NCBI RefSeq assembly: GCF_051860625.1
Contig: NZ_JBHYDQ010000016.1
Location: 4,156 to 68,155 of the forward strand
Reading direction: 5' to 3'
Source: Sandarakinorhabdus sp.
GTDB taxonomy: Bacteria > Pseudomonadota > Alphaproteobacteria > Sphingomonadales > Sphingomonadaceae
DNA length: 64,000 nucleotides
The notes below the pieces were generated by a model. That model was not told the origin of the DNA and searched no databases. It saw nothing but the letters and a program-made list of their open reading frames with translations. Position numbers and translations under genes: made by a program. Shown here one piece after another: positions 33,629 through 47,437 of the stretch; position 1 is the stretch's first letter; every line of letters begins with the position of its first letter.

Positions 33629-33741
33629 ACCACCACGCCGGAGTGACGGGAACGCGCATGATTTGATCGCAGCGGGCGCTCGGGTTGAGTGCCGCGCGCG
33701 GGCTCTGGCGGTGGCCGGGCGATTTTCGGGGTCGCGATATT

Positions 33742-35052
33742 ATGGTTGTAGCTCCGCCGGCAGCGGCTTCGCTGCTGGAGCAATTTCGTGCGTGGCCAGC
33801 GCCGCTGCAGCAGCAGTTGCTGGCGATGTATCGCGAGGAATTGCTGATTGCTGCGCTGGCCGGTGAAGGCCAGTTGCGGCCCAGCCAGATGGCACCGCCC
33901 GGCGATTGGGCGATCTGGGTGATCCTGGCTGGGCGCGGGTTCGGCAAGACGCTGGCTGGGGCTGAATGGATTCATGGGCTTGCAGGTGCGGCGCAGCGGC
34001 GGTTCGCATTGGTGGCGCCGTCGCTGGATGTGGCGCGGGCGGTGATGGTGGAAGGCGAATCCGGGCTGCTGGCGCGCGTGCCGCCGGAGACCGATCTGGT
34101 GTGGCAGCCGAGCACCAAACGGTTGATCTGGGGCAATGGCAGCGAGGCGCGGATCTATTCCGGCGCGGAGCCGGATGCGCTGCGCGGTGGACAGTTCGAT
34201 TACGCCTGGGGCGATGAATTCGCGCACTGGCTGCATGGTGAGGACGCGGTGATGAACCTGCGGATGGCGACCCGGCTCGGCGCGGCGCCGCAGATCATGC
34301 TGACGACGACACCGCTGCCGCTGGGCTGGTTGAAGGCGCTGCTGGCCGAACCCGGCGTGGTGATCACGCGCGGGCACACGGCGGACAATGCCGCCAATCT
34401 GCCGCGCGGGTTTCTGGCGCGGCTGGAGCGGCGCTTTGGCGGCACCGTGACTGGGCGGCAGGAACTGGCCGGCGAGATTGTCGAGGATTTGGACGGGGCA
34501 TTGTGGACGCGGGCGCTGATCGATCGGGCGCGCGTGGCGGATGCGCCGGCGCTGGTGCGCGTGGTGGTGGGGGTCGATCCGCCGGCGGGCGGTGGCACCT
34601 GTGGGATCGTGGTCACGGCGCTGGGGGCCGATGGCAATGCCTATGTGCTTGATGATCGCAGCATTTCGGGCGTCGCGCCGGGGCAGTGGGCGCGGGCCGT
34701 GGTGGCCGCAGCCGATCGCTGGCAGGCCGACAAGGTGGTCGCCGAAGTGAACCAGGGCGGCGCCATGGTGACGGCGATGCTGAAATCGGTGGAGTCCGCG
34801 CTGCCGGTGCTGGCGGTGCGGGCGGCGCGCGGGAAGGTGGCGCGGGCCGAGCCGGTGGCGGCGCTCTATGGCGAGGGCCGGGTCTGGCATGTCGGGGTGT
34901 TCCCGGCGCTGGAGGATGAACTGTGCGGACTGTTGAATGATGGTCGGTACGCCGGGCCGGGCCAATCGCCGGACCGGGCGGATGCGGCGGTGTGGGCATT
35001 GTCGGCGCTGATGCTGGGGCCACGCGTGGTGCCGGGCGTCCGTGAACTTTGA
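33742..35052 (+). CDS. GTA terminase large subunit (g2)
   Basis: ORF 33685..35052 (TTG); ATG 33742 preferred. Walker A-like ILAGRGFGKTLAGAEW. C-terminal nuclease region CGIVV...DRADA. Confidence 0.9.
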   Translation: MVVAPPAAASLLEQFRAWPAPLQQQLLAMYREELLIAALAGEGQLRPSQMAPPGDWAIWVILAGRGFGKTLAGAEWIHGLAGAAQRRFALVAPSLDVARAVMVEGESGLLARVPPETDLVWQPSTKRLIWGNGSEARIYSGAEPDALRGGQFDYAWGDEFAHWLHGEDAVMNLRMATRLGAAPQIMLTTTPLPLGWLKALLAEPGVVITRGHTADNAANLPRGFLARLERRFGGTVTGRQELAGEIVEDLDGALWTRALIDRARVADAPALVRVVVGVDPPAGGGTCGIVVTALGADGNAYVLDDRSISGVAPGQWARAVVAAADRWQADKVVAEVNQGGAMVTAMLKSVESALPVLAVRAARGKVARAEPVAALYGEGRVWHVGVFPALEDELCGLLNDGRYAGPGQSPDRADAAVWALSALMLGPRVVPGVREL

Positions 35053-35069: not shown

Positions 35070-36200
35070 ATGCGATTGCCGTTCTTGCGGACGAAGGCGG
35101 ACGCGCGGGGTTCGGGGCCGCCCGCGGCACGGATTCCGGTCTGGGCGACACCAGTTGGTGATGGTGGCGGTTATGCCGGGCAGGTGCGTGCGGCGTTCCT
35201 GGCCAATCCGGTGGCGTCGCGGGCCATCCGCCTTGTGGCGGAAGGCGCAGGCGGGGCGCCGATCACCAGCAATCCGGCCGGGCATCCGGCGCTGGCGTTG
35301 CTGGCGAGTTGTGGTTTTGGTGCGTCGGGGCCGGGGTTGATCGAGACACTGTCCGGACATTTGTTGTTGCACGGCAATGCCTATGTCGATGTGGCGGTGG
35401 GCGATGATGGCCTGCCGGCGGCGCTGTTTGCGCTGCGCCCGGAACGGGTGAGTGTGGAGGTGGACGCCAACGGTTGGCCGGCGGCGCATGTCTATCGCGC
35501 CGGGGGTGCGGTGCGGCGCTATCCGGTCGGGACCGGTGGCGGCTTGCTGCATGTGCGCAGTTTTCATCCGCTCGATGATCATCATGGCGCGGGCTGCCTG
35601 GCGCCGGCGGCGGCTGCGGTGGCGGTGCACAATGCGGCGACACGCTGGAATCAGGCACTGCTTGATAATGCGGCGCGGCCCAGCGGCGCGCTGGTGTACC
35701 AACCTGGTGATGGATCGACGCTGAGTCCGGCGCAATATGATCGGCTGCGCGCCGAAATGGAGGCGGCGTTCAGCGGTGCGGCCAACGCCGGCCGGCCGAT
35801 GCTGCTCGAAGGCGGGCTGAGCTGGCAGGCGTTGAGCCTGTCGCCGGCGGAGATGGATTTTGCCGGTATGCGCGAGGCGGCGGCGCGCGACATCGCGCTG
35901 GCGCTGGGGGTGCCGCCGCTGCTGCTCGGGCTGAAGGGCGACAACACCTACGCCAATTATCGCGAGGCCAATGTCGCGCTGTGGCGGCTGACGTTGCTGC
36001 CGCTGCTGAGCCGCGTGCTGGGCGCGCTGGCGGCCCACCTTGCCTGGTGGTGGCCGGGCCTGTGCCTGGGTGTGGACCGCGATGCCATCCCGGCGCTGGC
36101 CGAGGATCGGGAACGGCTGTGGGCCAGCGTGACCGCGGCTGATTTCCTGGAAGCATCGGAAAAGCGGCGAATATTGGGTTTGCAAGGAGAGGCGGCATGA
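35070..36200 (+). CDS. GTA portal protein, HK97 family (g3)
   Basis: GNAYVDV, LLDNAARPSGAL, GVPPLLLGL portal motifs. Confidence 0.9.
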   Translation: MRLPFLRTKADARGSGPPAARIPVWATPVGDGGGYAGQVRAAFLANPVASRAIRLVAEGAGGAPITSNPAGHPALALLASCGFGASGPGLIETLSGHLLLHGNAYVDVAVGDDGLPAALFALRPERVSVEVDANGWPAAHVYRAGGAVRRYPVGTGGGLLHVRSFHPLDDHHGAGCLAPAAAAVAVHNAATRWNQALLDNAARPSGALVYQPGDGSTLSPAQYDRLRAEMEAAFSGAANAGRPMLLEGGLSWQALSLSPAEMDFAGMREAAARDIALALGVPPLLLGLKGDNTYANYREANVALWRLTLLPLLSRVLGALAAHLAWWWPGLCLGVDRDAIPALAEDRERLWASVTAADFLEASEKRRILGLQGEAA

Positions 36201-36502
36201 CCGGAATCCTGGAAGGGCTGGTGGCACAGGCCGAGGCCCAGGGCGCGGCGCGGGTGACGTTGCAGGCAATCATCGAGGAGGCGGCTGAAACCGGCGCGGC
36301 GCGGGCGCTGCGCAGCATCGGGTTGATGGATGACGGTGCCGGCAGCGACATCAGGGAGCTGCGCCAGTTGGTGCAGGGCTGGCGCGATGTGAAATCGTCG
36401 GCGCTGAAGAGCTTTGTCGGCTGGTTGGTGCGCACGCTGGTGGTGCTGCTGCTGGCCGGTCTGGCGTTCAAGCTGGGCCTGCTGCGCGGGACGCAGCCAT
36501 GA
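36197..36502 (+). CDS. small GTA protein at the g3.5 position, C-terminal TM helix
   Basis: ATGA overlaps on both sides. 101 aa. VRTLVVLLLAGLAFKLGLL hydrophobic tail. Confidence 0.6.
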   Translation: MTGILEGLVAQAEAQGAARVTLQAIIEEAAETGAARALRSIGLMDDGAGSDIRELRQLVQGWRDVKSSALKSFVGWLVRTLVVLLLAGLAFKLGLLRGTQP

Positions 36503-36942
36503 ACAGCTTGCGGGTGGCGGGCTATGCCAGCGTGTTCGATGTGGCCGATCGCGGCGGCGATGTGGTGGCGCCTGGCGCCTTTGCCGGGGCGGCGGCGCCG
36601 CTGCCGTTGCTGTGGCAGCACAAGCCCGAGGAACCGATTGGGTTCGTGGAGGCGTTGGCCGAGGATGGGCGTGGCTTGCGCGTCACGGCGCGGATCGTGG
36701 CGCAGGGCCGCGGGGCGGAGGCCGCAGCGCTGGTGAAGGCCGGTGCGATCACGGGGTTGAGCTTTGGCTATCGGGTGAAGGCCGCCAGCCCGGCAAGGAC
36801 GGGTCGGCGGCTGGAGCGGCTGGAGCTGGTTGAAGTGTCGCTGGTGACCTTCCCGATGCAGCGGGAGGCGCGGGTGCTGGGTTGGCAAGAGGAGAACGAG
36901 GATGCTGGAACTGAAATCCGAGAATCTGTCCGCAGTGTTTGA
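36499..36942 (+). CDS. HK97-family prohead protease (g4)
   Basis: AGYASVFDVADRGGDVVAPGAF ... LLWQH ... LSFGY ... EVSLVTFP motifs. Confidence 0.85.
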   Translation: MNSLRVAGYASVFDVADRGGDVVAPGAFAGAAAPLPLLWQHKPEEPIGFVEALAEDGRGLRVTARIVAQGRGAEAAALVKAGAITGLSFGYRVKAASPARTGRRLERLELVEVSLVTFPMQREARVLGWQEENEDAGTEIRESVRSV

Positions 36943-37882
36943 TGCGGCCGAAACCATCACGCGGCCGGCGCTGGAGGCCAAGGCCGCGACCGTGGGCACG
37001 CCTGCCAAGGGCGGGCTGGCGGTGCCCCAGGAAATCGATGCGGTGATCGGGCGGGTACTGGCGGCGTCCTCGCCGATCCGCGCCATTGCCCAGGTGGTTG
37101 AGGTGGGATCGGCCAATTATCGCCGGCTGTTCACCACCAGCGGCGTGGTGTCGGGCTGGGTGGCGGAAACCGCAGCGCGGCCCGAAACCGAGACGCCGGA
37201 CTTTGCCGAAATCGCGCCGCCGATGGGCGAGCTTTACGCCAATCCGGCCGCCAGCCAGGCGATGCTGGACGATGCGGCCTTCGATGTGGAGGCCTGGCTG
37301 GGCGAGGAAATCGGCCGCGAATTTGCCCGCGCCGAAGGTGTGGCTTTTGTGAACGGCGATGGCGTGAACAAGCCGCGCGGGTTTCTGAATGGGCCGGTGG
37401 CCGCCACGGGCGACGCCACCCGCGCGTTCGGCACGCTGCAAGTTGTGGCATCCGGCGCAGCGGGTGATTTCGCGGCGGCCAGCCCGCAGGATCGGCTGAT
37501 CGATCTGGTGCATGCGCTGGCCAGCCCCTATCGCCAGGGGGCGGTGTGGGTGATGAACAGCGCCACGCTGGCGCGCATCCGCAAGTTCAAGACCAGCGAC
37601 GGCGCCTTCATCTGGCAGCCGGGCCTGGGGCCAGACCAGCCGCAGACGCTGCTCGGCTATCGCGTCGTCGAGGTCGATGCGATGCCCGACATTGCTGCGG
37701 ACAGCCTTTCGATCGGCTTCGGCAATTTCGAGGCGGGGTATCTGATCGCGCAGCGGGCGGAAACCACCGTGCTTAAGGACCCCTACAGCAACAAGCCCTA
37801 TGTGCATTTCTATGCAACGCGGCGCGTGGGTGGGGCGGTGCTCGACAGCCGCGCCATCAAGCTGATGCGCTTTTCCGCCTGA
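36902..37882 (+). CDS. HK97-family major capsid protein (g5)
   Basis: 326 aa. SPIRAIAQVVEV...ANYRRL, GFLNG, AVWVMNSATLARIRK, KDPYSNKPYVHFYATRRVGG. Confidence 0.9.
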   Translation: MLELKSENLSAVFDAAETITRPALEAKAATVGTPAKGGLAVPQEIDAVIGRVLAASSPIRAIAQVVEVGSANYRRLFTTSGVVSGWVAETAARPETETPDFAEIAPPMGELYANPAASQAMLDDAAFDVEAWLGEEIGREFARAEGVAFVNGDGVNKPRGFLNGPVAATGDATRAFGTLQVVASGAAGDFAAASPQDRLIDLVHALASPYRQGAVWVMNSATLARIRKFKTSDGAFIWQPGLGPDQPQTLLGYRVVEVDAMPDIAADSLSIGFGNFEAGYLIAQRAETTVLKDPYSNKPYVHFYATRRVGGAVLDSRAIKLMRFSA

Positions 37883-37934: not shown

Positions 37935-38390
37935 ATGGCTGATAATGTGACGGCGCCGGCGATTGGCCTGGCGTTTGCGACCGATGAAGTGGCCGGTGTG
38001 CATTGGCCTTATGCCAAGCTGGCGTTCGGCGGCGATGGCAGCGCGGTGGTGCTGGCCGATGCCGATGGCGCGCGGCTGCCGGTGGCGCTGCCGGCGGTGG
38101 CGACAACGACGCGCGCCTATGATTGGCCGGCGGGGCAGCGGCTGACGACGGCCGGGGCGGCGGCGGTGCGCAGCACGGCCATCGCGGCAGCCGAAGTGCT
38201 GCTGCATGCGTCGGCGCGCGGTTTCGTGGCGGTGGGCGATGCGGCGGTGGTGGCCAGTGTTGGTGCTGGCTCCATCCCGATGGAAGCCGGCGAAAAATTC
38301 CATCTGCGCCTGACCAGTGGGCAGCATGTGTCCTTCATCCGCGACGGGGCGGCGGATGCCAGCCTGACCGTCATGCCGGTGGCGCCATGA
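37935..38390 (+). CDS. hypothetical protein (GTA insert ORF A, 151 aa)
   Basis: G/C-rich third codon positions. ATGA-coupled to ORF B. No family recognised. Confidence 0.6.
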   Translation: MADNVTAPAIGLAFATDEVAGVHWPYAKLAFGGDGSAVVLADADGARLPVALPAVATTTRAYDWPAGQRLTTAGAAAVRSTAIAAAEVLLHASARGFVAVGDAAVVASVGAGSIPMEAGEKFHLRLTSGQHVSFIRDGAADASLTVMPVAP

Positions 38391-38602
38391 TCGGCGCTGT
38401 CGGTCGTGTCGGCCGGCTGGGCCTGTTTGGCGGCGCCATCCGCCGGGTGGTGCGCAGCGCAGATTTCACATTGTCGAACGCCAGTGTCGCCACGATCTGG
38501 GGCACTGTCGAGGTCGGCAATCTTGTGCCGAGTGACGCGCCTGCGGGCGCCTATTTCGTAATCGTCGGCGAACCTGCCGGCCTGGCAGTGGTGAACGGCT
38601 GA
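38387..38602 (+). CDS. hypothetical protein (GTA insert ORF B, 71 aa)
   Basis: Internal ATG 38387 of ORF 38123..38602. ATGA upstream and TGATG downstream coupling. Confidence 0.5.
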   Translation: MIGAVGRVGRLGLFGGAIRRVVRSADFTLSNASVATIWGTVEVGNLVPSDAPAGAYFVIVGEPAGLAVVNG

Positions 38603-41319
38603 TGGCTATTCGTGTCGCAACGCAGGGCGCAACGCAGTTGCAGTTGCCGGCCGGGATCACCAAGCCGGCCAATTTCCTGACCGGGCGCAGCATCGGCGGT
38701 GCTGACGGGCAGATCATGGGCTATTGGCAGGCGTTCATGGTCCGCCTGCCCAACAGCGGGTGGCAGACCGGCAATTTCCGCCGCTTCCTGCTGGGCGGTG
38801 CCGTCTATGGCGCGACGCCCGGCCTGATCACCGAAGCAACCACTGGCACCAGTGTTGGTGTGAATGGCGTCTGGCTGGGGCAGGACAACACCGAAAGCGC
38901 CAACCTGTCGGGTGCTGCGCTGCGTCTGCGCCCGCGCGTGCTGTGGCGCGGCAATGATCAGTTGCTGGGCTATGCCTGGCCCTATGCGGCGGCCAGCATC
39001 AACGAAACCGACTTCACCAATCTGACCCAGCTTACCACGGGTGCCGCCTGGCTCATGCTGTCGGGTGTCACCAACACCGCCGCGCAGGGCGACACGCCGG
39101 TGTGGCGCGGTTGGGCGGCCAACTGCCTGATCGGGCCGGATGGTGTCGTGTCGAGCGATATCACCAGCACCGGGCCACAGAACAACACCTGGCTGGAGGC
39201 CACGACCGGTTCCGTGCTGATGCGGCAGGTGTTTCTGGCTCAGGCCAGCGGCGGCAGCATCGCGCTGAACAGCATCGTCGGCACTGAGATCGAGCATATC
39301 GCGCTGTGCCAGGGCGATTTCCCGTGGAATACGGCGACCGACCGTCCGCACCACGATGCCATTGCCGCCCTGGCCGGCGTGACCGGTGCGACTCCGCTCA
39401 ACTATGCCGGCCTGGTGGCCGCGCAGAACGCCGGCAGCTTGCCTTATGCCAATTGCCGGCAGGGCAAGGGTGATCTGACCCACCATTGGCCGCTGGCCGA
39501 TCTGACCCCGGCGGGCCTGACCAGCACCGGCAGCGCCACGCCTGCGACCTTCGAACAGGTGAACTACAACAGCCTGTCGAACGGGCTGGCGGCTGAAGCG
39601 ACTCTGGCCCCGCTGCACTGGCAGGGCGGTGCCCCGGCAATCACGGCGCCTGCTGTCAAGTTTCAGGGCGGGCGCGGGACATTGCCATTCACCATCGGTG
39701 GCACCTATCAGGCCGGCACCACCGCGCTGGAGCGGCGCTGGGAAGTGGAAGCCACCGGCAACGCTGTGCCCGGCTTTGATTGGGAAGCCGTGGACGTGAT
39801 CGGCAGCGGCACCTGGCAGACCACCGACACGCTGCCGATCGGCGGCCCCTACACGCTGCGCGTGCGCGATAGCGCCGATACCGGCCGCGCTGTCGCGATG
39901 ACCGGGATGCTGGTCGGCACCGTCATGCTGGCCCATGGTCAATCCGGCATGGCGCAGGCGCTGCGCACCGGCGACAACGTGCTGGGGATCGCCGTGGATG
40001 CCGGTGCCATCGGCGTGTATCTGACCGCCAGCAACGACGCGGGCGGTGCCAGCTATGTCAAGCCGGTGCCCGTCACCTATGCGATGAACGGCGGCGCCAC
40101 GCCGCCCATCGCCAGCCATGGCAGCATCTTGTTGCTCAACGAGTGGAACGCCCACAACCCCGGCCACCCGCTGCTGATCGCCAACATGGCCATCGGCGGG
40201 CGATCGATGGATGAATGGACCGCCGACAGCGCCTGGGGGCAATGGACCTTCCTGGGCAATGTCGGCGAACCGGGCGTGGCCGGGCCGGATGGTGTTGGCC
40301 ACACCGGGCATTTTGCCTGGATGATGCGCGGCTATACCGATTGCCACGCGATCATGTGGACGCCGGGCATGTCGAGCGTGCAGGCCACCCGCAACGCCTA
40401 TGCCGCCGCCATCGATGCTCGATTCGATGCCAGCCCGAACGCGCCGTGGCTGGTGATGCCGCCGTGGCGGGGCCACCGCAGCGCGCCGGAAAACTCGGCG
40501 ACGGTGGGCAAGCGTGCGCAGCATGTCGATTTCGTCGCCGAACGCGGGGTCCGCGGCATCCTTGGTCCCTATTGGCCGGATATCGTGATGGACGGCAACC
40601 CGCAGCCGGCCGACACCACCGCGCAAGGCAGCCTGCACAGCGCCTATCACAGCGACGCCTCTGCCGGTGGCGGCGGCAGCCCGGTAAGCGATCAGAACCA
40701 GGTCGGCCAGGGCCGGCTTGGGCGCGGTATCGGCCGGGCGCTGGCGTGGGCGTTTGACCGCACGGTGAAGGCCATCGGCCCGCGCGTGGTCGGCGCCTGG
40801 TTCCGCGATGCCGGCCGCACGGTGATCGAGGTCGAGATTGGCCGCGCGGTGCGCACATTGAACGGCGCGGCGATCAGCGAGCAGTTCTGGGTGAGCAGCG
40901 ACGGCGGCACCAATTTCATCAAGACGGGTTTCACAGTGGCACTGGATGCCACCGGCGCCCGTGCGGTGCTGACCAGCACGGGCGGGGCATGGCCGGAAAC
41001 GACGACTCGCGTGGATTACGCCCGCGCCTGGCCGTTCGGCCCGGCCGACGGCGATCTGGATGAGACCCTGACCGAACGCAAGCTGGATGGGCTGTTGTAT
41101 GACGATCAGGTGTATCGCGGCGGCGTGAACCTGGCGACGCCGGCCGGCAATCCGCTGGCCAGCGCGAACGGGAACGGCGTGGCGGTGACGGCGCGCGGCG
41201 CAGCGAAGCTGCTGGCCACCGAACGCTGGGCCGGCACGCGCAACGTGACCGTGCGCATGATGGCCGCCGACGGCGTGACGGTGCTTGCCGAAAAGACCCT
41301 GGCCGTAACGGGAAGCTGA
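38602..41319 (+). CDS. large GTA-embedded protein (insert ORF C, 905 aa): LamG-like N-terminus, beta-sandwich, sialate-O-acetylesterase-like (SGNH/SASA) core
   Basis: GQSGM at 39937..39951, AIGGRSMDEW at 40189..40218, AIMWTPGMSS at 40348..40377. C-terminal RVDYARAWPFGP resembles the SASA-family tail. N-terminal IVGTEIEHIALCQG resembles a LamG end motif. All by eye. Confidence 0.7.
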   Translation: MAIRVATQGATQLQLPAGITKPANFLTGRSIGGADGQIMGYWQAFMVRLPNSGWQTGNFRRFLLGGAVYGATPGLITEATTGTSVGVNGVWLGQDNTESANLSGAALRLRPRVLWRGNDQLLGYAWPYAAASINETDFTNLTQLTTGAAWLMLSGVTNTAAQGDTPVWRGWAANCLIGPDGVVSSDITSTGPQNNTWLEATTGSVLMRQVFLAQASGGSIALNSIVGTEIEHIALCQGDFPWNTATDRPHHDAIAALAGVTGATPLNYAGLVAAQNAGSLPYANCRQGKGDLTHHWPLADLTPAGLTSTGSATPATFEQVNYNSLSNGLAAEATLAPLHWQGGAPAITAPAVKFQGGRGTLPFTIGGTYQAGTTALERRWEVEATGNAVPGFDWEAVDVIGSGTWQTTDTLPIGGPYTLRVRDSADTGRAVAMTGMLVGTVMLAHGQSGMAQALRTGDNVLGIAVDAGAIGVYLTASNDAGGASYVKPVPVTYAMNGGATPPIASHGSILLLNEWNAHNPGHPLLIANMAIGGRSMDEWTADSAWGQWTFLGNVGEPGVAGPDGVGHTGHFAWMMRGYTDCHAIMWTPGMSSVQATRNAYAAAIDARFDASPNAPWLVMPPWRGHRSAPENSATVGKRAQHVDFVAERGVRGILGPYWPDIVMDGNPQPADTTAQGSLHSAYHSDASAGGGGSPVSDQNQVGQGRLGRGIGRALAWAFDRTVKAIGPRVVGAWFRDAGRTVIEVEIGRAVRTLNGAAISEQFWVSSDGGTNFIKTGFTVALDATGARAVLTSTGGAWPETTTRVDYARAWPFGPADGDLDETLTERKLDGLLYDDQVYRGGVNLATPAGNPLASANGNGVAVTARGAAKLLATERWAGTRNVTVRMMAADGVTVLAEKTLAVTGS

Positions 41320-41331
41320 GAGGACAGGCGC

Positions 41332-41520
41332 ATGATCCTGACGCACTTCCTGGTGCTGCTGTCGGCCCCGGCCGTGGTGGCGCCGGTGGCGGTGTTGCCG
41401 CAGCCGGCGACGCTGCCGATCGGCGACGCCGGCGCGGTGGTCGTGGTGCCGCGCGCCCTGGCATTGCTGCCGGCGTTGGCGGTGCGGGCGGTGCCGGTGC
41501 TGGCGGTGCGCGGCGACTGA
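41332..41520 (+). CDS. small hydrophobic Pro/Val/Ala-rich protein (insert ORF D, 62 aa)
   Basis: GAGGAC 6 nt upstream. Nearly every codon ends in G/C in this frame. Confidence 0.4.
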   Translation: MILTHFLVLLSAPAVVAPVAVLPQPATLPIGDAGAVVVVPRALALLPALAVRAVPVLAVRGD

Positions 41521-41541
41521 TATTTCATTTTCGGGAGAGGG

Positions 41542-41913
41542 ATGATGGCGCGATTTGCGGGCCAGCCGGTGCTCGATGCCGGGCTGGATGTGCTGGCCAG
41601 TGCCGATCGGTTGCTGGTGCTGGCCGGGGCGCCAGCGGATTTTGCCGCGGCGGTGGCGGCGCCTCTGGCGGAGGCGGTGTTGGCGCCGACGGATTTCGGC
41701 AAGGCGGATGCTGATGGTGGCGGCCGGACGCTGGCGGTGGCGGCGCGCGCCGGGCTGGTGGCGCTGGGTTCGGGCACGGCCGATCATGTCGCGCTGGTGG
41801 ATGGGGCGGGGGAACGGCTGCTCTATGTCACGCCCTGTCCACCGCAGCCGGTGCTGCAAGGCGGAGCCGTGAGCGTGGCGGCGTGGACGGTGACGGCGGC
41901 GGCGCCGGTGTAA
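41542..41913 (+). CDS. hypothetical protein (insert ORF E, 123 aa)
   Basis: GGGAGAGGG RBS. Good coding periodicity. No family recognised. Confidence 0.6.
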   Translation: MMARFAGQPVLDAGLDVLASADRLLVLAGAPADFAAAVAAPLAEAVLAPTDFGKADADGGGRTLAVAARAGLVALGSGTADHVALVDGAGERLLYVTPCPPQPVLQGGAVSVAAWTVTAAAPV

Positions 41914-41940
41914 CGGCAACAGCTGAGGAAGGTGCCCGAC

Positions 41941-42216
41941 ATGACCTTGTTTCTGAAGGATCCCGGCGCGGTGGTGGACCATGTCGTCGATTGGGACGCG
42001 GGCTATCTGAATGGCCGCGCCATCGTCGCTTCGGCGTGGAGTGTGGAGCCCGACGCCGGCCTGACGCTGGCCAATCCGCGCCGGGCGGGCGGGCGCACCG
42101 CGATCAGCCTGGGCGGCGGCACGGCCGGGCAGGTCTGCCGGGTGACCAACCTTGTGACGCTGGACGACGGCAGCCGTGATGAACGCACGTTGCTGGTGCG
42201 GGTGGAGGAGCGGTGA
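41941..42216 (+). CDS. small beta-sandwich protein resembling the phage fiber-tail adaptor family (insert ORF F, 91 aa)
   Basis: ATG 41941 after GAGGAAGG. LKDPGAVVDHVVDWDAGYL ... ISLGGGTAGQVCRVTNLVTLDDGSRDERTLLVRV matches the KDPxxxxDxxxDW ... GG..G ... pattern of that family (from memory). Confidence 0.6.
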   Translation: MTLFLKDPGAVVDHVVDWDAGYLNGRAIVASAWSVEPDAGLTLANPRRAGGRTAISLGGGTAGQVCRVTNLVTLDDGSRDERTLLVRVEER

Positions 42217-42737
42217 TGGTGGAGCTGGAACCGGGGCCGCTGGTGGTGGGCCTATCCGAGTGCAAGGCGGCGCTGCGGCTGGATCGTGATGACGAGGATG
42301 CAGCGATTGCCGGCCATATTCGTGCTGCCATGGGCCTGTGCGAGGCGTTCATCGGCCAGTGGCTGATCGTGCGGGAGGGTGAAAAGGCGCTGGTGGGGGA
42401 TCTGGCCTGGCAGCGGTTGCTGGCCAGCCCATGCGTGGCGATTTCGGGAGTGTTTGTTGGCGGCGATGCGTTGCCGGACGGTGATTGGCAGGGCGATATT
42501 GCCGCCGATGGCACCGGCTGGGTCCGGCTGGTGCGTGTGCCTGATGGCCGGGCAGTGGTGCGGTTTCGCGCCGGGCTGGGTGCCGATTGGAACGGCGTGC
42601 CAGAGCCGCTGCGCGCCGGGATCGTGCGGCTGGTCAGCCATTTGTTCAGCCATCGCGATGCCGCCGATGCCGGCCCGCCGCCGGCCGCGGTGGCGGCGCT
42701 GTGGCGGCCGTGGCGGCGCATGCGGCTGGGGGGTTGA
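42216..42737 (+). CDS. head-tail connector/adaptor, gp6-like (g6)
   Basis: TGATG overlap with ORF F (a GTG at 42213 is also possible). LSECKAALRLDRDDEDAAIAGHIRAAMGLCEAFIG is typical of the gp6-like family. Confidence 0.8.
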   Translation: MVELEPGPLVVGLSECKAALRLDRDDEDAAIAGHIRAAMGLCEAFIGQWLIVREGEKALVGDLAWQRLLASPCVAISGVFVGGDALPDGDWQGDIAADGTGWVRLVRVPDGRAVVRFRAGLGADWNGVPEPLRAGIVRLVSHLFSHRDAADAGPPPAAVAALWRPWRRMRLGG

Positions 42738-44575: not shown

Positions 44576-45104
44576 GGTGGACGAGCTGGTGGTGAAGCTG
44601 CGCGCCGACACCGGCGGCTTTCTGGCCGGGGTGGGGGAGGTGCAGCGCACGCTGGATGGCCCGTTGGCGGCCGGGCTGGAGCGGGCAGGCGCGGGGCTCA
44701 GTCGTTCGCTGGGGCGGGCGCTGGCGGATGGCAAATTGGGGTTTGACGATCTGCGGCGCATTGCGGTGTCGGCGCTGGGCGATATCGCGAGCCAGGCGCT
44801 GCGGCTTGATCTGCGGTCGCTGTTCGGTGGCGGTGGCGGCGTGATCGGCGGGCTGCTCGGTTTGCCGGGGCGCGCCACCGGCGGATCGGTGAGCGCCGGG
44901 CGCGCCTATATGGTTGGCGAACGTGGCCCGGAAGTGTTTGTGCCCACTGCGGCGGGGCGGGTGGAGGCCAATGGCGCCGGTGCGCGGCCGGTGAACATCA
45001 CTGTGAATGTTGCGGCGCCGCGCGAGGCCAGCGCGGCGGTGATGCAGCAGACCGGCAACCAGGTGGCGCGCGCCGTCGCCCGCGCGCTGGAGCGGGCGCG
45101 ATGA
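44568..45104 (+). CDS. short tape measure protein (g11)
   Basis: 178 aa. Gly-rich centre, then AYMVGERGPEVFVP motif. Confidence 0.8.
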   Translation: MDEVDELVVKLRADTGGFLAGVGEVQRTLDGPLAAGLERAGAGLSRSLGRALADGKLGFDDLRRIAVSALGDIASQALRLDLRSLFGGGGGVIGGLLGLPGRATGGSVSAGRAYMVGERGPEVFVPTAAGRVEANGAGARPVNITVNVAAPREASAAVMQQTGNQVARAVARALERAR

Positions 45105-47437
45105 TGCGCTGGTGGCTGGCCGACGCCGACGACAGGCAAGCGACGCGGCATGTGCGGCGGTTCGATCCGCGCTGGTGGCTGGTGGATTTTCCGCGGCCGA
45201 TGATGGCCAGCGTGGTGACGGAAGGCGCAGAGTCGGTGGTGGTGCGGCTGGAATTTCAGCGGCGCAATGATCTCGCCGGGCTGATCTGGGAATCGGCGGA
45301 CCGCTGGAGCCACCGGCTGTGCGCTTTGGAAGAACGGCGCGACTATCGCGGGCTGTTGTGGCGGTTTCGCTGGCAGGCGAGCGGCGATGTGCTGGCGCTG
45401 GATGTGCTGAACGGCCCGGTGCTGACCATCGAGGGGCGGGACGCGGCGGGCAGCCCGCGTACCTGGTATGTGCGGCTGTGGAACTATGCGGTCGGCACGC
45501 CGATGGATGCCGAAATTGCGCTGGATTTCGATGCGCTGGTTGGCGGATTTCTGCTGCCAGCCGAGGCCGATCCGGTGTGGGCTGGCGATATCGACCGCAT
45601 GTTCATCAGCCTGGTGCCGCCGGGCTATACAGGTGCCGACACGCCATTGCTGGCGGTGGCGCAGGCGGAGGTGCGGCTGACGACCTTGTTGCTGGAGGGC
45701 GACGGCGCCGTGCTGCGCGCCGGGCGGCCGGCGCTGCCGCCGCATGACTGGCGGCTGTGCACCGCCTATGACGACAGTTACAACCAGACGCCGGAGCGCA
45801 TCCTGGAGCAGGCGCTGCTGCTCGGCTGGCGGGGGGCGATCACCCACTATCTGGGCATGAGCCATTTCATGGCGCTGCTGCCGGAAGGGGATGATTATCT
45901 GGTCGATCCGGCGCGGCCCTTTTGTGGCCCGGCGCAGGCCTGGCATGCGGATTTTCTGGCGCGGGCGCAGGCCTTGGGCTTTGCGCCGATCCTGTCGCTG
46001 TCGATGGAGTTGTTCGCCGCGCATTGCCCGGCCGATTGGGCGCAGCGCGATGTGGATGGGGCGATGGGCCTGACCGGCTGGGTGCCGCCGTCGGCGCTGC
46101 TGTCGCCGTGCCATCCGGGAGCGCAGGCCTGGTTGCAGGCCGTGGTCGCTGCCGCGATGGCGCTGGTGCCGGCCGGCATGGCGCCGGCATTTCAGGTGGG
46201 GGAGCCGTGGTGGTGGGTCGGGCCGGATGCGCGGCCTTGCCTTTATGATTCGGCGACGGTGGCGCGCTGGACTGGCGAAACCGGGCTGCCGCCGCCGCCG
46301 ATGGCCGATATTCGGGGCGCCAAATCGCCGGCCGAGCAGGCGTATCTCGATTGGTGCGGCGCGCGGCTGGCCGAGGCCACGGCCGGGATGGTGGCGGCGG
46401 CGCGGGCAGCGGCGCCGGATGTGCGCACGCATCTGCTGTTCTATGCGCCGCAGGTGTTGCTGTATGACCGGCCCGATCTGGCGCGCGCCAATCTGCCGGC
46501 TGCCTGGGCCTGGCCGGCCTATGATGTGTTACAGTTGGAGGATTACACCTTCGTCACTAGCGCCAACCAGGCCGGGCAGGCGCGGGCGCGCGCAGCGGTT
46601 GATGCGCTTCTGGGTTATCCGTTGGCCCAGCAACATTATCTGGCGGGTTTTGTGCTGAATGCCGAAGATGCAGCCGCGCAATGGCCGCTGATTGCCACGG
46701 CGGCCGCGCAGTCGCCGGCGGCCGAACGCTTCATCTGGGCCTGGCCGCAGGTGGCGCGCGACGGCTTCACCCCCTTCATGCTTGTTGATGGAGACGATGC
46801 CATGCCGGCGTTTCACGATGTGCGCTTCCCGCTGCATTTGGGCTATGGCGCCGCCGGCGGCCCGGCCTTTTCCACGCAGGTGGTGGTGACGGGTTCGGGC
46901 GCCGAGCAGCGTAACGCCGAATGGGCCGATGCGCGGTTGGAATATGATGCCGGGCTGGGCGTGCGGTCAGAAGCCGATCTGGCGCAATTGCTGGCGTTTT
47001 TCCGGGCGCGGCGCGGGCAGGCGCATGGCTTTCGGTTTCTCGATCCGCTCGACAATAGTTCGGCGATGGCGGGCGAGCCGGCGGCGACGGATCAGCCGCT
47101 GGGGGTGGGCGATGGCAGCACCACCCGTTTTGCGCTGGTGAAGCTGTATGGCGATGATGGCCTTGCCGATGATCCGCCGCAGCGTCGGCGAATCACAAGG
47201 CCGTGGCCGGAAACGGTGCTGGTGGCGGTGAACGGCGTGGCGCAGTCCGGCTGGACGCTAGGTGAGGCTGGCCACATCGATTTTGCCACACCACCGCCGC
47301 CGGGCGCGCTGGTCACGGCCGGCTATCGCTTTGATGTGCCGGTGCGCTTCGCCAGTGACCGTATCGCGGTGTCGATCGCCGGCTGGCAGGCCGGCGAGCT
47401 GCCTGGCGTGCCGCTCATTGAAATCCGCGAGGATTGA
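45101..47437 (+). CDS. distal tail protein g12 (DUF2460) fused to a 567-aa N-terminal extension
   Basis: The C-terminal 211 aa from the internal ATG at 46802 (MPAFHDVRFPLHLGYGAAGGP...FFRARRGQAHGFRF) are DUF2460-like. No stop between 45101 and 46802. GGAGA lies 7 nt upstream of 46802. Confidence 0.8.
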   Translation: MMRWWLADADDRQATRHVRRFDPRWWLVDFPRPMMASVVTEGAESVVVRLEFQRRNDLAGLIWESADRWSHRLCALEERRDYRGLLWRFRWQASGDVLALDVLNGPVLTIEGRDAAGSPRTWYVRLWNYAVGTPMDAEIALDFDALVGGFLLPAEADPVWAGDIDRMFISLVPPGYTGADTPLLAVAQAEVRLTTLLLEGDGAVLRAGRPALPPHDWRLCTAYDDSYNQTPERILEQALLLGWRGAITHYLGMSHFMALLPEGDDYLVDPARPFCGPAQAWHADFLARAQALGFAPILSLSMELFAAHCPADWAQRDVDGAMGLTGWVPPSALLSPCHPGAQAWLQAVVAAAMALVPAGMAPAFQVGEPWWWVGPDARPCLYDSATVARWTGETGLPPPPMADIRGAKSPAEQAYLDWCGARLAEATAGMVAAARAAAPDVRTHLLFYAPQVLLYDRPDLARANLPAAWAWPAYDVLQLEDYTFVTSANQAGQARARAAVDALLGYPLAQQHYLAGFVLNAEDAAAQWPLIATAAAQSPAAERFIWAWPQVARDGFTPFMLVDGDDAMPAFHDVRFPLHLGYGAAGGPAFSTQVVVTGSGAEQRNAEWADARLEYDAGLGVRSEADLAQLLAFFRARRGQAHGFRFLDPLDNSSAMAGEPAATDQPLGVGDGSTTRFALVKLYGDDGLADDPPQRRRITRPWPETVLVAVNGVAQSGWTLGEAGHIDFATPPPPGALVTAGYRFDVPVRFASDRIAVSIAGWQAGELPGVPLIEIRED

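Follow-up and report, generated by a model that had tools for sequence, protein, structure and literature searches.

The question raised by this locus is what a large lectin- and esterase-like protein does inside a GTA-type gene cluster. The protein is encoded by a 905-aa ORF (38602..41319, + strand) in a 64,000-nucleotide stretch of DNA from Sandarakinorhabdus sp., hereafter the window, and from its translation, its homologues, an AF2 model and Foldseek comparisons it is predicted to combine a lectin-like domain with a divergent SASA/CE20-like esterase unit. The ORF on which the original prediction was built is real and all the motif strings quoted from it are where they were said to be; among them, IVGTEIEHIALCQGDFPW corresponds to aa 225-242, TTTRVDYARAWPFGP to aa 800-814 and LYDD to aa 832-835. 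It has a GC3 of 0.83, and its start codon, an ATG, overlaps the stop of a 71-aa ORF upstream. Homologue searches gave 38 full-length homologues with identities down to 37%, and the protein is found full-length and conserved at 37% to 70% identity in 16 species-level genomes. In a pattern-based scan the family was present in only 16 of ~ 186,000 species genomes.

The genes around the 905-aa gene follow the order of the RcGTA head-tail cluster, with PF11836 GTA-gp10, DUF2460, BR0599 and Rcc01698_C among them, in agreement with the GTA-embedded setting first described. Within this RcGTA-type cluster the gene is one of six that form an insert between the capsid gene (g5) and the adaptor gene (g6), and it is co-oriented with the surrounding head-tail gene array. 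The first insert gene after the capsid gene is a 151-aa ORF (37935..38390, +), the position of which is conserved in all related clusters; no family match was obtained for it in family searches, and against a tiny database it weakly matched a 147-aa ORF beside the relative P0066 (E 1.4e-4). It is followed by the 71-aa ORF (38387..38602, +), whose start and stop overlap both neighbours and which may encode a partner of the 905-aa protein or its anchor. The GTA-type clusters, and L027 too, have an ORF of 67-80 aa immediately before the large gene, and the 71-aa protein displays a weak similarity (14.5 bits) to the C-terminus of a 1167-aa phage protein, the gene of which lies directly upstream of the relative P0069. 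Downstream of the 905-aa gene there is a 62-aa Ala/Val/Pro-rich ORF (41332..41520, +; GC3 0.98), and an ORF of 59-64 aa occupies this place in all related clusters. The insert module was found in every related cluster examined, and relatives of the 905-aa protein occur in phage structural regions.

Searches with the single 905-aa sequence against Pfam, PHROGs, NCBIfam and PDB sequences gave no match, the protein being below every curated family threshold searched, and the Pfam scan for PF03629 and LamG that had been suggested as a check was negative even at E <= 1. The SASA assignment thus rests on profiles and on predicted structure. On Foldseek the AF2 model (pLDDT 81, pTM 0.63) has as its best PDB match 7KMM, the XAC1771 CE20 acetylesterase (E 4.7e-16), with further matches to rabbit SIAE 8F9R (E 1.2e-12) and to Fl8 and PpCE20 (E about 1e-10). 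The N-terminal part, aa 1-250 with approximate edges (38602..39351, +), is predicted to be an all-beta jelly-roll of the ConA/legume-lectin type, with strands spanning aa 2-238 according to DSSP. Its Foldseek matches are legume lectins and PL14/PL36 alginate lyases (E 1e-4 to 1e-3, prob 0.9-1.0, TM (target) 0.34-0.40); hence the ConA/LamG-like N-terminus that had been proposed is recovered as a predicted fold, with no match to Pfam LamG. A linker of helices (aa 251-258 and 268-277) and short strands comes next (aa 251-340; 39352..39621, +) and contains the conserved RPHHDAIAALAG..LVAAQNAG motifs; R248, P249, H250, L257 and A258 are invariant among homologues.

The following segment, aa 341-438 (39622..39915, +), is the one formerly called an Ig-like spacer. 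It is a predicted beta-sandwich with a GGPY motif, of the kind found ahead of the catalytic domain in SASA/CE20 enzymes, and its counterparts in the alignments are the N-terminal sandwiches of human SIAE 8F9O, of the PF03629 protein P0144 and of the SASA profile. The SGNH-fold catalytic-type domain, assigned by hhalign and AF2, covers aa 439-722 (39916..40767, +), and the strand/helix order of the model puts S448 at a helix N-terminus following strand 440-446. A C-terminal beta-sandwich (aa 723-815; 40768..41046, +; strands at aa 731-806) includes the strand TRVDYARAWPF, the region of which aligns with ARVDMYRGVPF of the relative P0103. The model ends with a flexible linker and a small C-terminal beta domain (aa 816-905; 41047..41316, +), with pLDDT <50 at 837-847 and strands at 860-904. 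In the relatives P0063 and P0071 this tail region is replaced by a gp6-like adaptor domain, and the alignment of P0063 with the 905-aa protein stops at residue 872. Together, prediction and homology describe a jelly-roll of the ConA type joined through a linker to a SASA/CE20-type unit that is complete, though highly divergent.

The profile comparisons lead to the same family. An exhaustive profile search gave 167 relatives grading from GQSG through GQSQ to the canonical GQSNM/WxQGE, and the family profile retrieves canonical GQSNM/WxQGE proteins with library-wide E-values from 1e-10 to 1e-4. P0144 matches the family profile at E 4.5e-6 and PF03629 at 6e-55, and P0107 is above the SASA gathering score. 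Moreover, when 30 canonical proteins, of which 29 belong to PF03629, were compared with the family by hhalign, the probabilities were 99.6-99.9% (99.6% and E 6e-24 for alignment A4). Taken singly, five residues might match by chance; given this retrieval, the profile-profile alignment and the invariance of Q447, S448 and H679, the GQSGM motif is not a chance occurrence, and the SASA/SGNH-like esterase fold of the original prediction is upheld. A link to polysaccharide is provided by one relative, the 690-aa P0103, which is encoded within an EPS synthesis and export locus.

The three-part architecture predicted here is that of XAC1771 (7KMM), SIAE (8F9R, 8F9O), Fl8CE20_II, PpCE20_II, NanS and PF03629 proteins. 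Indeed, the 905-aa protein shares the GGPY N-terminal beta-sandwich, the SGNH-fold domain and the C-terminal beta-sandwich with SASA/CE20 (and CE6-like) O-acetylesterases, and blocks I, II, III and V occur in identical order with the Ser of G-Q-S and the block V His kept. It differs from SASA/CE20 proteins by scoring below the Pfam gathering score, and by the exchanges Asn to Gly/Ala, Gln to Pro and Glu to Met/Leu/Ile, and it carries in addition a ConA-like domain of ~ 250 aa at the N-terminus, a linker of 90 aa and a tail domain at the C-terminus. Furthermore, its gene is inside a virion array and no signal peptide is evident by eye; whereas SASA/CE20 proteins are secreted catabolic enzymes, the 905-aa protein would be made in the cytoplasm and linked to the particle.

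Whether such a divergent unit could be active depends on the catalytic blocks. Block I, GQSGM (aa 446-450; 39937..39951, +), aligns to GQSNM of PF03629 proteins, with Ser448 at the nucleophile position. Block II, AIGGRSMDEW (aa 530-539; 40189..40218, +), aligns to the SASA A.GGT.i..W; its consensus in the 905-aa family is NMAINGTxMxxW and the Gly is not strictly conserved. In block III, AIMWTPGMSS (aa 583-592; 40348..40377, +), W586 is kept, the SASA Gln is Pro588 and the SASA Glu is Met590 (Met/Leu/Ile across the family). Block V, GSLHSA (40627..40644, +), aligns to the invariant SASA His and places His679 at the general-base position, in a loop of moderate model confidence (pLDDT about 55-65), with Ser replacing the Asp of DxH. 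A similar S-x-H motif, RSSHFS, was seen in the sequence of E. coli NanS. The blocks had therefore been correctly assigned (GQSGM as I, AI(G/N)G..M..W as II, MWTPGM as III, and the TRVDYARAWPF strand in the C-terminal beta-sandwich) and the Glu is indeed absent from block III, as is the Gln of WxQGE; the remark that no clear DxxH is present holds for the Asp but not for the His, which is there and invariant.

Q447, S448, D660 and H679 are invariant in 38 of 38 full-length homologues, and most aligned remote relatives retain the QS and His positions. In the 30 canonical SASA proteins WxQGE and the Asn of GQSN are invariant, whereas in the 905-aa family this Asn is Gly/Ala; since Asn, Gln and Glu are all replaced, the usual oxyanion-hole side chain is missing. 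Catalysis by the 905-aa protein, with Ser448 and His679 in place, is plausible but unproven. The family-wide loss of these three residues, the Ser in place of Asp, the variable block II Gly and the lack of a match to any curated esterase model would all suit a non-catalytic SASA-like unit, which together with the lectin-like domain would act as a pure carbohydrate-binding receptor-recognition module of the particle. As general enzymology teaches, however, backbone amides are able to form an oxyanion hole, and they could do so here. Moreover, Ser-His dyads without Asp have been described for mammalian SIAE (PMC12313940), and the retention of Ser448 and His679 in every full-length member, and of QS and His in most remote relatives, is hard to explain without chemistry. 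We regard a purely binding role as possible, though doubtful.

As regards the place of the protein on the particle, the other genes of the insert point to the neck. A 123-aa ORF (41542..41913, +) encodes a protein that AF2 (pLDDT 91), Foldseek and homologue context suggest to be a whisker or Fiber-1-like neck protein. Its only Foldseek matches with E < 0.1 are Bas63 connector chains K/L/M, Sf14 neck chain K and a phage 7-7-1 fibre chain (prob 1.0, TM 0.5-0.68), and it is on their E of about 5e-3 that the likely whisker-like assignment rests. In two other elements a homologue (E 1.6e-25 and 1.2e-17) has the esterase-like gene as its neighbour, and in L031/L032 homologues adjoin a gp6-like adaptor gene; the 123-aa protein and the esterase-like gene are thus together in three element types, and the former adjoins an adaptor gene in a fourth. 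A 94-aa ORF (41932..42216, +), probably 91 aa in reality with its ATG at 41941 as its homologues are 91 aa long, matches Pfam PF23148 Gp77 (E 9e-23, 81 bits for a cut-off of 27), an Ig-like collar or fibre-tail adaptor. In the podophage GP4 the Gp77-type protein forms a ring around the head-to-tail adaptor and anchors fibres (PMC11445570), and the rope is a separate protein (PMC12609058). By its position, its GC3 and analogy with GP4, the 62-aa ORF is a candidate for the rope protein of the collar-whisker set.

The presumed docking site is the 174-aa head-tail adaptor (RcGTA g6 / gp6-like; 42213..42737, +), which matches the PHROG 442 head-tail adaptor at E 1.6e-18, Pfam Phage_connect_1 at E 0.005, below the cut-off, and the C-terminal domain of the fusion protein P0063 at a BLASTP E of 8e-5. 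In the distant phage relatives P0063 and P0071 the lectin-esterase body is N-terminal to a gp6-like head-tail adaptor (Phage_connect_1, 25.6 and 27.7 bits, cut-off 21.2), and P0071 fills the adaptor slot of a siphophage module. This covalent fusion implies a stable mounting. The 94-aa PF23148 collar and the 123-aa whisker/Fiber-1-like protein are shared with the systems of GP4 (gp77, Fiber-1, rope), a podophage, and of Bas63 and Sf14, both myophages, the small Ala/Val/Pro-rich ORF being the candidate counterpart of the GP4 rope, and here the collar, whisker and candidate rope genes all adjoin the head-tail adaptor gene. Unlike those phages, the present element is a siphovirus-like GTA, and whereas they carry small whisker dimers and fibres with no enzyme mentioned in the sources consulted, a 905-aa lectin-esterase co-occurs here.

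In light of these results, we favour, with a probability of roughly 0.55, a reading in which the 905-aa protein is a structural appendage of the GTA particle, mounted at the neck, which binds polysaccharide and probably de-O-acetylates it. The collar ring that surrounds the dodecameric adaptor, perhaps with the help of the 71-aa protein, would fix it to the head-tail junction, from where it would project outward. The lectin-like domain and the esterase cleft would bind O-acetylated capsule or exopolysaccharide of recipient cells, and acetyl groups would be removed via the Ser448-His679 dyad. Attachment would then be reversible and receptor-destroying, and the particle could work its way across the polysaccharide until it reaches the cell surface.

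The protein might instead sit on the capsid as a head spike, fibre or decoration, comparable to GhsA/GhsB of RcGTA. Here and in L028, two small ORFs separate the gene from the major capsid gene upstream of it, and RcGTA is reported to possess head spikes, GhsA/GhsB, that bind capsule (PMC10218006, PMC7296036). However, the fusion partner in two independent relatives is a gp6-like adaptor and not a capsid or decoration protein, and the companion genes are of collar- and whisker-type neck proteins, so that a capsid site appears unlikely. Rather improbable as well is a soluble or loosely attached enzyme released at lysis to strip or loosen matrix polysaccharide. The precedent for it is the RcGTA tailspike TspA, a polysaccharide-active enzyme proposed to be detachable and to loosen the matrix (bioRxiv 10.64898/2026.07.19.739414), and it would fit the cellular relatives in EPS loci and a model in which no clear anchoring peptide of its own is evident. 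Against it stand the N-terminal sequence MAIRVATQGATQL, in which no signal peptide was seen by eye, the tight coupling of the gene within the structural array and the covalent adaptor fusion in relatives. Finally, it is very improbable that we are dealing with a prophage, cryptic or in decay, in which the ORF is a phage fibre gene left behind and now functionless: although the GTA assignment is made from gene content and the cluster flanks vary between genomes, the 18-kb array has all its genes intact and a high GC3, its match to RcGTA is gene for gene with a short, 178-aa gene at the tape-measure position, no integrase, replication or lysis genes were found among the neighbours of the cluster scanned, and the 905-aa protein is conserved full-length across the 16 species-level genomes.

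The neck-mounted appendage that we prefer can be compared with known ones. GhsA/GhsB and TspA of RcGTA are encoded outside the head-tail cluster (PMC5721377). Like the proposed 905-aa protein they are polysaccharide-directed GTA appendages that help to reach recipients, but they attach to capsid vertices or the tail and not to the neck, no esterase fold is reported for them in the texts consulted whereas one is predicted here, and the searches run gave no sequence relation between them and the 905-aa protein. The original view that a receptor-modifying enzyme on a GTA would be unusual needs narrowing: a polysaccharide-active one, TspA, was already known, whereas an esterase, and a neck-linked one, seems to lack a GTA precedent in the literature searched. 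Infectious phages have tail fibres and tailspikes with esterase domains, such as G7C gp63.1 and the Vi-phage acetyl esterases; these enzymes are of the GDSL/SGNH type and are carried by trimeric fibres. Tailspikes with esterase (deacetylase) domains are also reported for the Schitoviridae Moo19 and B2 (PMC11654681), and a deacetylating fibre for Possum (PMC9569702). Virion-borne removal of O-acetyl groups from a surface polysaccharide receptor, with small adaptor proteins, is also the mode proposed for the 905-aa protein, which differs in its SASA/CE20 branch, its GTA-type cluster and its apparent neck/adaptor linkage instead of a tail-tip position, its activity being a predicted one. Virion-borne esterases are already known; the setting, a GTA and probably its neck, is new.

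The closest functional analogy is provided by the haemagglutinin-esterases of influenza C virus, toroviruses and coronaviruses, in which a virion lectin domain and an SGNH-type sialate-O-acetylesterase act as a receptor-binding and receptor-destroying pair. These belong to eukaryotic enveloped viruses and have the lectin inserted into the esterase, whereas here the lectin-like domain precedes the esterase unit; to our knowledge there is no homology between them beyond the superfamily fold. If the reading that we favour is true, the GTA particle carries an enzyme that binds or modifies the surface polysaccharide of the recipient.

The 905-codon open reading frame at 38602..41319 (+) shows a GC3 of 0.83, a value in keeping with a coding frame given DNA of 66-70% G+C, and its start ATG overlaps the TGA stop of the 71-aa ORF located 5' of it. 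On the opposite strand, the 1143-aa ORF at 38551..41982 was discarded, being a shadow ORF of the kind that arises in high-GC DNA. All strings quoted in the original prediction were found in the translation at their coordinates, namely GQSGM (aa 446-450, nt 39937..39951), AIGGRSMDEW (aa 530-539, nt 40189..40218), AIMWTPGMSS (aa 583-592, nt 40348..40377), a LamG-like strand at aa 225-242, TTTRVDYARAWPFGP at aa 800-814 and LYDD at aa 832-835; the domain boundaries of the protein are approximate.

Searched alone, the 905-aa protein has no match in Pfam, PHROGs or NCBIfam, and phmmer against the PDB sequences returned nothing either. The PF03629 (SASA) and LamG profiles, which had been proposed as a means of recognising an esterase core behind a LamG-like N-terminus, are included in this result even at E ≤ 1, and the SASA idea would have been given up had the empty scan been taken at face value. 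A word-indexed search gave 38 full-length homologues with 37-70% identity, the named sources of which are Sandarakinorhabdus and unclassified Sphingomonadales. In a pattern-based scan of one genome per species, which distant relatives could escape, the family was found in only 16 of 185,579 species, all of them Sandarakinorhabdus or related Sphingomonadales MAGs. Residues Q447, S448, N513, W515, W586, D660, H679 and D697 are invariant in the family alignment. Sub-threshold matches to PF03629 are seen in only 3 of the 38 members (best E 0.03), the 905-aa protein does not reach the Pfam gathering score of 24.8 bits, and no member has a Pfam LamG or lectin match. The family profiles gave, against the PDB sequences, only a marginal match to the sialate esterase SIAE over the first SASA motif block (E 0.4-0.45). 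Some members (L022 1331-4540; P0022, P0055), which reach 1069-1092 aa, carry tandem He_PIG Ig-like domains between the N-terminal region and the esterase unit; hence the length of the spacer varies.

Comparison of the family with the single sequence of E. coli NanS by hhalign was uninformative; the alignment called for a profile built from many SASA proteins. When 1.84 billion cluster representatives were searched exhaustively by HMMER, the family profile had 167 matches, which form a graded series: the close family carries GQSG(M) without WxQGE, intermediate relatives of ~700-900 aa carry GQSQ and often WxQGT in block III, and below E ~1e-9 there are many relatives with the canonical GQSNM and WxQGE. 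PF03629 proteins are found by the family profile at library-wide E-values of 1e-10 to 1e-4. P0144, a canonical-motif protein, matches PF03629 at 6e-55, P0107, one of the intermediate relatives, scores above the SASA gathering cut-off, and 29 of 30 canonical-motif matches are members of PF03629. Profile-profile alignment of residues 340-725 with those 30 proteins (hhalign) gave a probability of 99.6% and an E-value of 6e-24, and 99.9% in a separate run, a score that is somewhat inflated because the 30 proteins were taken from the profile's own match list.

In this alignment HGQSGM falls on GQSNM, which places Ser448 at the nucleophile position, NMAINGTxMxxW falls on A.GGT.i..W (block II), iMWTPGM on lWxQGE (block III), WPD on the conserved Asp of the SASA 'DL' motif (D660) and GS(L/G)H on the invariant SASA His (His679). 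Block I conserves G-Q-S and has Gly or Ala at the position of the invariant SASA Asn. WxQGE, invariant in the canonical SASA set, is absent from the family, in which W586 is kept, the Gln is replaced by Pro588 and the Glu by Met, Leu or Ile. In block V H679 is invariant, but a Ser is found instead of the Asp two residues before it.

The predicted structure, an independent result, agrees with the SASA homology seen by hhalign. The AlphaFold2 model of the 905-aa protein, built with the family alignment as input, has a mean pLDDT of 81 and a pTM of 0.63, and CE20/SIAE esterases are its top Foldseek matches in the PDB: 7KMM (XAC1771, a 'novel carbohydrate acetylesterase' according to its PDB entry; E 4.7e-16, TM (target) 0.64), 8F9R (rabbit sialic acid esterase; E 1.2e-12), 9H4U and 9EGA (Fl8CE20_II and PpCE20_II; E ~1e-10) and 1ZMB (putative acetylxylan esterase; E 6e-3). 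Together with the profile-level homology to PF03629, this bears out the SASA/SGNH fold that had been proposed for the core, which the model shows as a predicted SGNH alpha/beta/alpha fold with beta-sandwich flanks. In the model, Ser448 comes after strand 440-446 and begins helix 448-453, block II comes after strand 524-528 and block III after strand 581-585, and His679 lies in the loop preceding the last long helix (703-718), an order of secondary structure elements which fits the SGNH fold. Foldseek against the BFVD viral predicted structures gave no close relative, with a whole-chain TM of at most 0.24. The Foldseek match to the N4 chain 9YF5_LA was dropped as evidence, this chain being the multi-domain sheath protein gp65 (TM 0.13-0.16).

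A second group of Foldseek matches, over ~210-280 residues, is made up of legume lectins, PL14/PL36 alginate lyases and the Chlorella virus vAL-1, with E-values of 2e-4 to 5e-3, probabilities of 0.75-1.0 and a TM (target) of only 0.31-0.40, and was assigned to the N-terminal domain of the model. Given these modest TM values and the pLDDT of 53-79 at residues 50-140, a ConA-like jelly-roll is the best reading of this domain and its membership in LamG is not established.

As judged from sequence and model, we consider the odds to be slightly in favour of catalysis by the 905-aa protein, the alternative being a pseudo-esterase that only binds its ligand. Against catalysis, the Asn of GQSN and the Gln and Glu of WxQGE, all invariant in canonical SASA proteins, are missing, and this Gln has been described as the residue contributing its side chain to the oxyanion hole (PMC12313940); moreover, the His679 loop is modelled with only moderate confidence. 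In favour of it, no family member departs from Ser448 or His679, and most of ~35 far more remote relatives that were aligned retain the QS and His positions. Also in favour, E. coli NanS has an S-x-H sequence (RSSHFS), not DxH, and a Ser-His dyad has been described for mammalian SIAE (PMC12313940).

The gene of this putative esterase lies within a co-oriented 18-kb array, at ~33.1-51.3 kb of the window, which matches gene for gene the head-tail cluster of the gene transfer agent RcGTA. Homologues of g2-g15 are collinear in it, GTA-typical families included. The array comprises the terminase (33685-35052), the portal (35070-36200), a gene in the prohead-protease position (36499-36942), the homologues of which in related loci carry Peptidase_S78, the HK97-type capsid (36902-37882) and the gp6-like adaptor (42213-42737), as well as head closure (Phage_HCP), tail completion (gp17-like), tube (Phage_tail_2) and tail assembly (PF11836 'GTA-gp10') genes, a short 178-aa ORF in the tape-measure position, the distal tail (DUF2460), the hub (Gp84_N and BR0599), an NlpC/P60 peptidase and a last large gene with Phage-tail_3 and Rcc01698_C. 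DUF6127 and DUF2793 are present in related loci. The array is flanked by ordinary chromosomal genes (Rieske oxygenase, MFS transporter, epoxide hydrolase), and no integrase, replication or lysis genes were found among the flanking genes scanned. Several genomes (L001, L002, L033) have in common the upstream neighbours CoA-transferase, an HD-domain protein and two beta-lactamase-family genes; the window instead has a Rieske oxygenase and an MFS transporter as neighbours, and L020 has DNA polymerase I, hence the GTA-type locus has moved, or its surroundings have been rearranged, within the lineage. The g12-like DUF2460 distal-tail protein at 45101-47437 (+) has an N-terminal extension of ~570 aa, a fusion shared by all related clusters seen, and this extension may be a second unusual receptor-directed module of this GTA lineage.

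Between capsid and adaptor, six genes are inserted compared with RcGTA (151, 71, 905, 62, 123 and 94 aa), and the same insert is found in every related cluster examined. The 94-aa protein is encoded at 41932-42216 (+), beside the adaptor gene with its start at 42213, and belongs to the Pfam family PF23148 'Gp77 fibre-tail adaptor', the model of which it covers in full (9e-23, 81 bits vs a cut-off of 27). The podophage GP4 protein of this type, Ig-like and 93 aa long, surrounds the dodecameric head-to-tail adaptor as a 15-mer ring to which three sets of fibres are anchored (PMC11445570). All homologues retrieved with the Gp77-like protein were close relatives in clusters of this one type, so that no alternative cargo proteins came to light. 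The 123-aa protein (41542-41913, +) is modelled at a pLDDT of 91 with an N-terminal helix (8-19) followed by the strands of a beta-sandwich. Its only Foldseek matches with E < 0.1 are the top five, i.e. Bas63 connector chains K/L/M, Sf14 neck chain K and a 7-7-1 fibre chain (probability 1.0, TM 0.5-0.68, E a modest 5e-3 to 1.5e-2); its assignment as a whisker/Fiber-1-like protein, as that of the lectin-like domain, is thus drawn from modest Foldseek scores. Two unrelated contigs of phage-like character have a homologue of the 123-aa protein beside an esterase-like gene (E 1.6e-25 and 1.2e-17), and in a fourth element a homologue comes directly after a gp6-like adaptor gene, near a faint Gp77 match. 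The small whisker proteins of Bas63 are dimers strung along a 'rope', which starts from an Ig-like collar with homology to the GP4 collar; in GP4 the rope is a separate protein (PMC12609058). The Ala/Val/Pro-rich 62-aa ORF (41332-41520, +) is by inference a candidate for such a rope, and the three small genes upstream of the adaptor look like a rope/whisker/Ig-collar set of the GP4-Bas63-Sf14 type.

On the other side of the 905-aa gene, the 151-aa ORF (37935-38390, +) directly follows the capsid gene, is kept in all related clusters, has no family match and could be a decoration or anchoring protein. It weakly matches a 147-aa ORF adjoining P0066 (L027), a relative of the 905-aa protein. Directly upstream of the 905-aa gene is the 71-aa ORF (38387-38602, +). 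Its last ~40 residues show a weak likeness (14.5 bits in a tiny database) to the very end of a phage protein of 1167 aa (L025 6497-10000), at the C-terminus; the 1167-aa protein directly precedes the relative P0069 and thus has the same position. The shared piece may be a conserved docking element.

Two distant relatives of the 905-aa protein are joined to an adaptor domain at their C-terminus. P0063 (1057 aa; L028 2249-5422) shares 36% identity with the window protein over residues 1-872 of the latter (E 3e-129) and then runs into a Phage_connect_1 (gp6-like adaptor) domain (25.6 bits vs a cut-off of 21.2), which matches the window's own adaptor at a BLASTP E of 8e-5. P0071 (1068 aa; L034 171-3377), from a different 50%-identity cluster, is also a Phage_connect_1 fusion (27.7 bits) and takes the place of the adaptor in a siphophage head-tail module, where Phage_HCP and a tape measure of 613 aa lie downstream of it. 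By sequence, then, the lectin-esterase body is in some phages an N-terminal extension of the adaptor itself, which argues that the unfused GTA protein would also be displayed at the head-tail junction.

Other relatives are found in different surroundings. P0069 (826 aa) belongs to a phage that encodes PrimPol together with a terminase and a portal of the lambda type, P0066 (887 aa) to an element with a P22-type coat protein, in which a beta-helix protein follows it, and P0103 (690 aa; L023 10001-12073), whose block I is of the GQSQ type, is encoded within an exopolysaccharide synthesis/export locus with UDP-glucose dehydrogenase, a glycosyltransferase, Bac_transf, Poly_export, Wzz, EpsH/EpsI and flanking small ORFs of 79-91 aa. 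These contexts support a polysaccharide substrate, and suggest that EPS loci and phage appendage genes exchange genes.

On their way to recipient cells, GTAs presumably pass through the polysaccharide of capsules and biofilms. The exopolysaccharides of sphingomonads are often O-acetylated, and virion-borne polysaccharide esterases are known in phages. To our knowledge, the only GTA accessory proteins characterised so far are the RcGTA head spikes and the TspA tailspike. Prediction and homology yield the domain composition, the conservation of Ser and His, the module of genes, the collar/whisker partners and the adaptor fusions in relatives, and from them we infer neck mounting, polysaccharide binding and deacetylation by the 905-aa protein. 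It would be mounted at the neck through the collar and the rope, perhaps also the 71-aa protein, would bind the O-acetylated capsule or EPS of recipient cells and would remove acetyl groups by its Ser448-His679 dyad. This would result in a reversible, receptor-destroying attachment, the same mode as that of phage esterase tailspikes; the likeness to viral haemagglutinin-esterases would be functional only.

Collar-whisker systems are known in GP4, Bas63 (PMC12609058) and Sf14, and for RcGTA the polysaccharide-degrading tailspike TspA is now described (bioRxiv 10.64898/2026.07.19.739414). In a full-text search of the literature, no paper turned up that connects GTAs with collars, whiskers, esterases or SGNH, nor any report of a collar-whisker system in a GTA. 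What appears to be new, as read from sequences and models, is the combination of a sequence-orphan SASA/CE20 branch of altered active-site signature with an RcGTA-type cluster, a collar-whisker set and adaptor-fused relatives. At a probability of roughly 35%, we tentatively propose that an alphaproteobacterial GTA lineage (Sandarakinorhabdus and its allies) acquired a complete GP4/Bas63-type collar-whisker apparatus displaying at the head-tail junction this SASA/CE20 branch, with a Ser-His centre in which the Asn, Gln and Glu of canonical members are missing. No receptor-destroying enzyme would have been known before on the neck of a GTA, the same enzyme being built into the head-tail adaptor in related phages.

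Given that adaptor-fusion relatives exist, neck/adaptor mounting is directly testable. The six-gene module is a practical marker, because it sets Sandarakinorhabdus-type GTA clusters apart from other RcGTA-like clusters. If the protein is on the particle and active, the neck/adaptor would join the list of mounting sites for such enzymes, and the family would represent a SASA/CE20 branch missed by current family models, with a catalytic centre departing from the canonical one. In the same case, GTA lineages would re-equip themselves with different polysaccharide-directed enzymes from phage and EPS gene pools.
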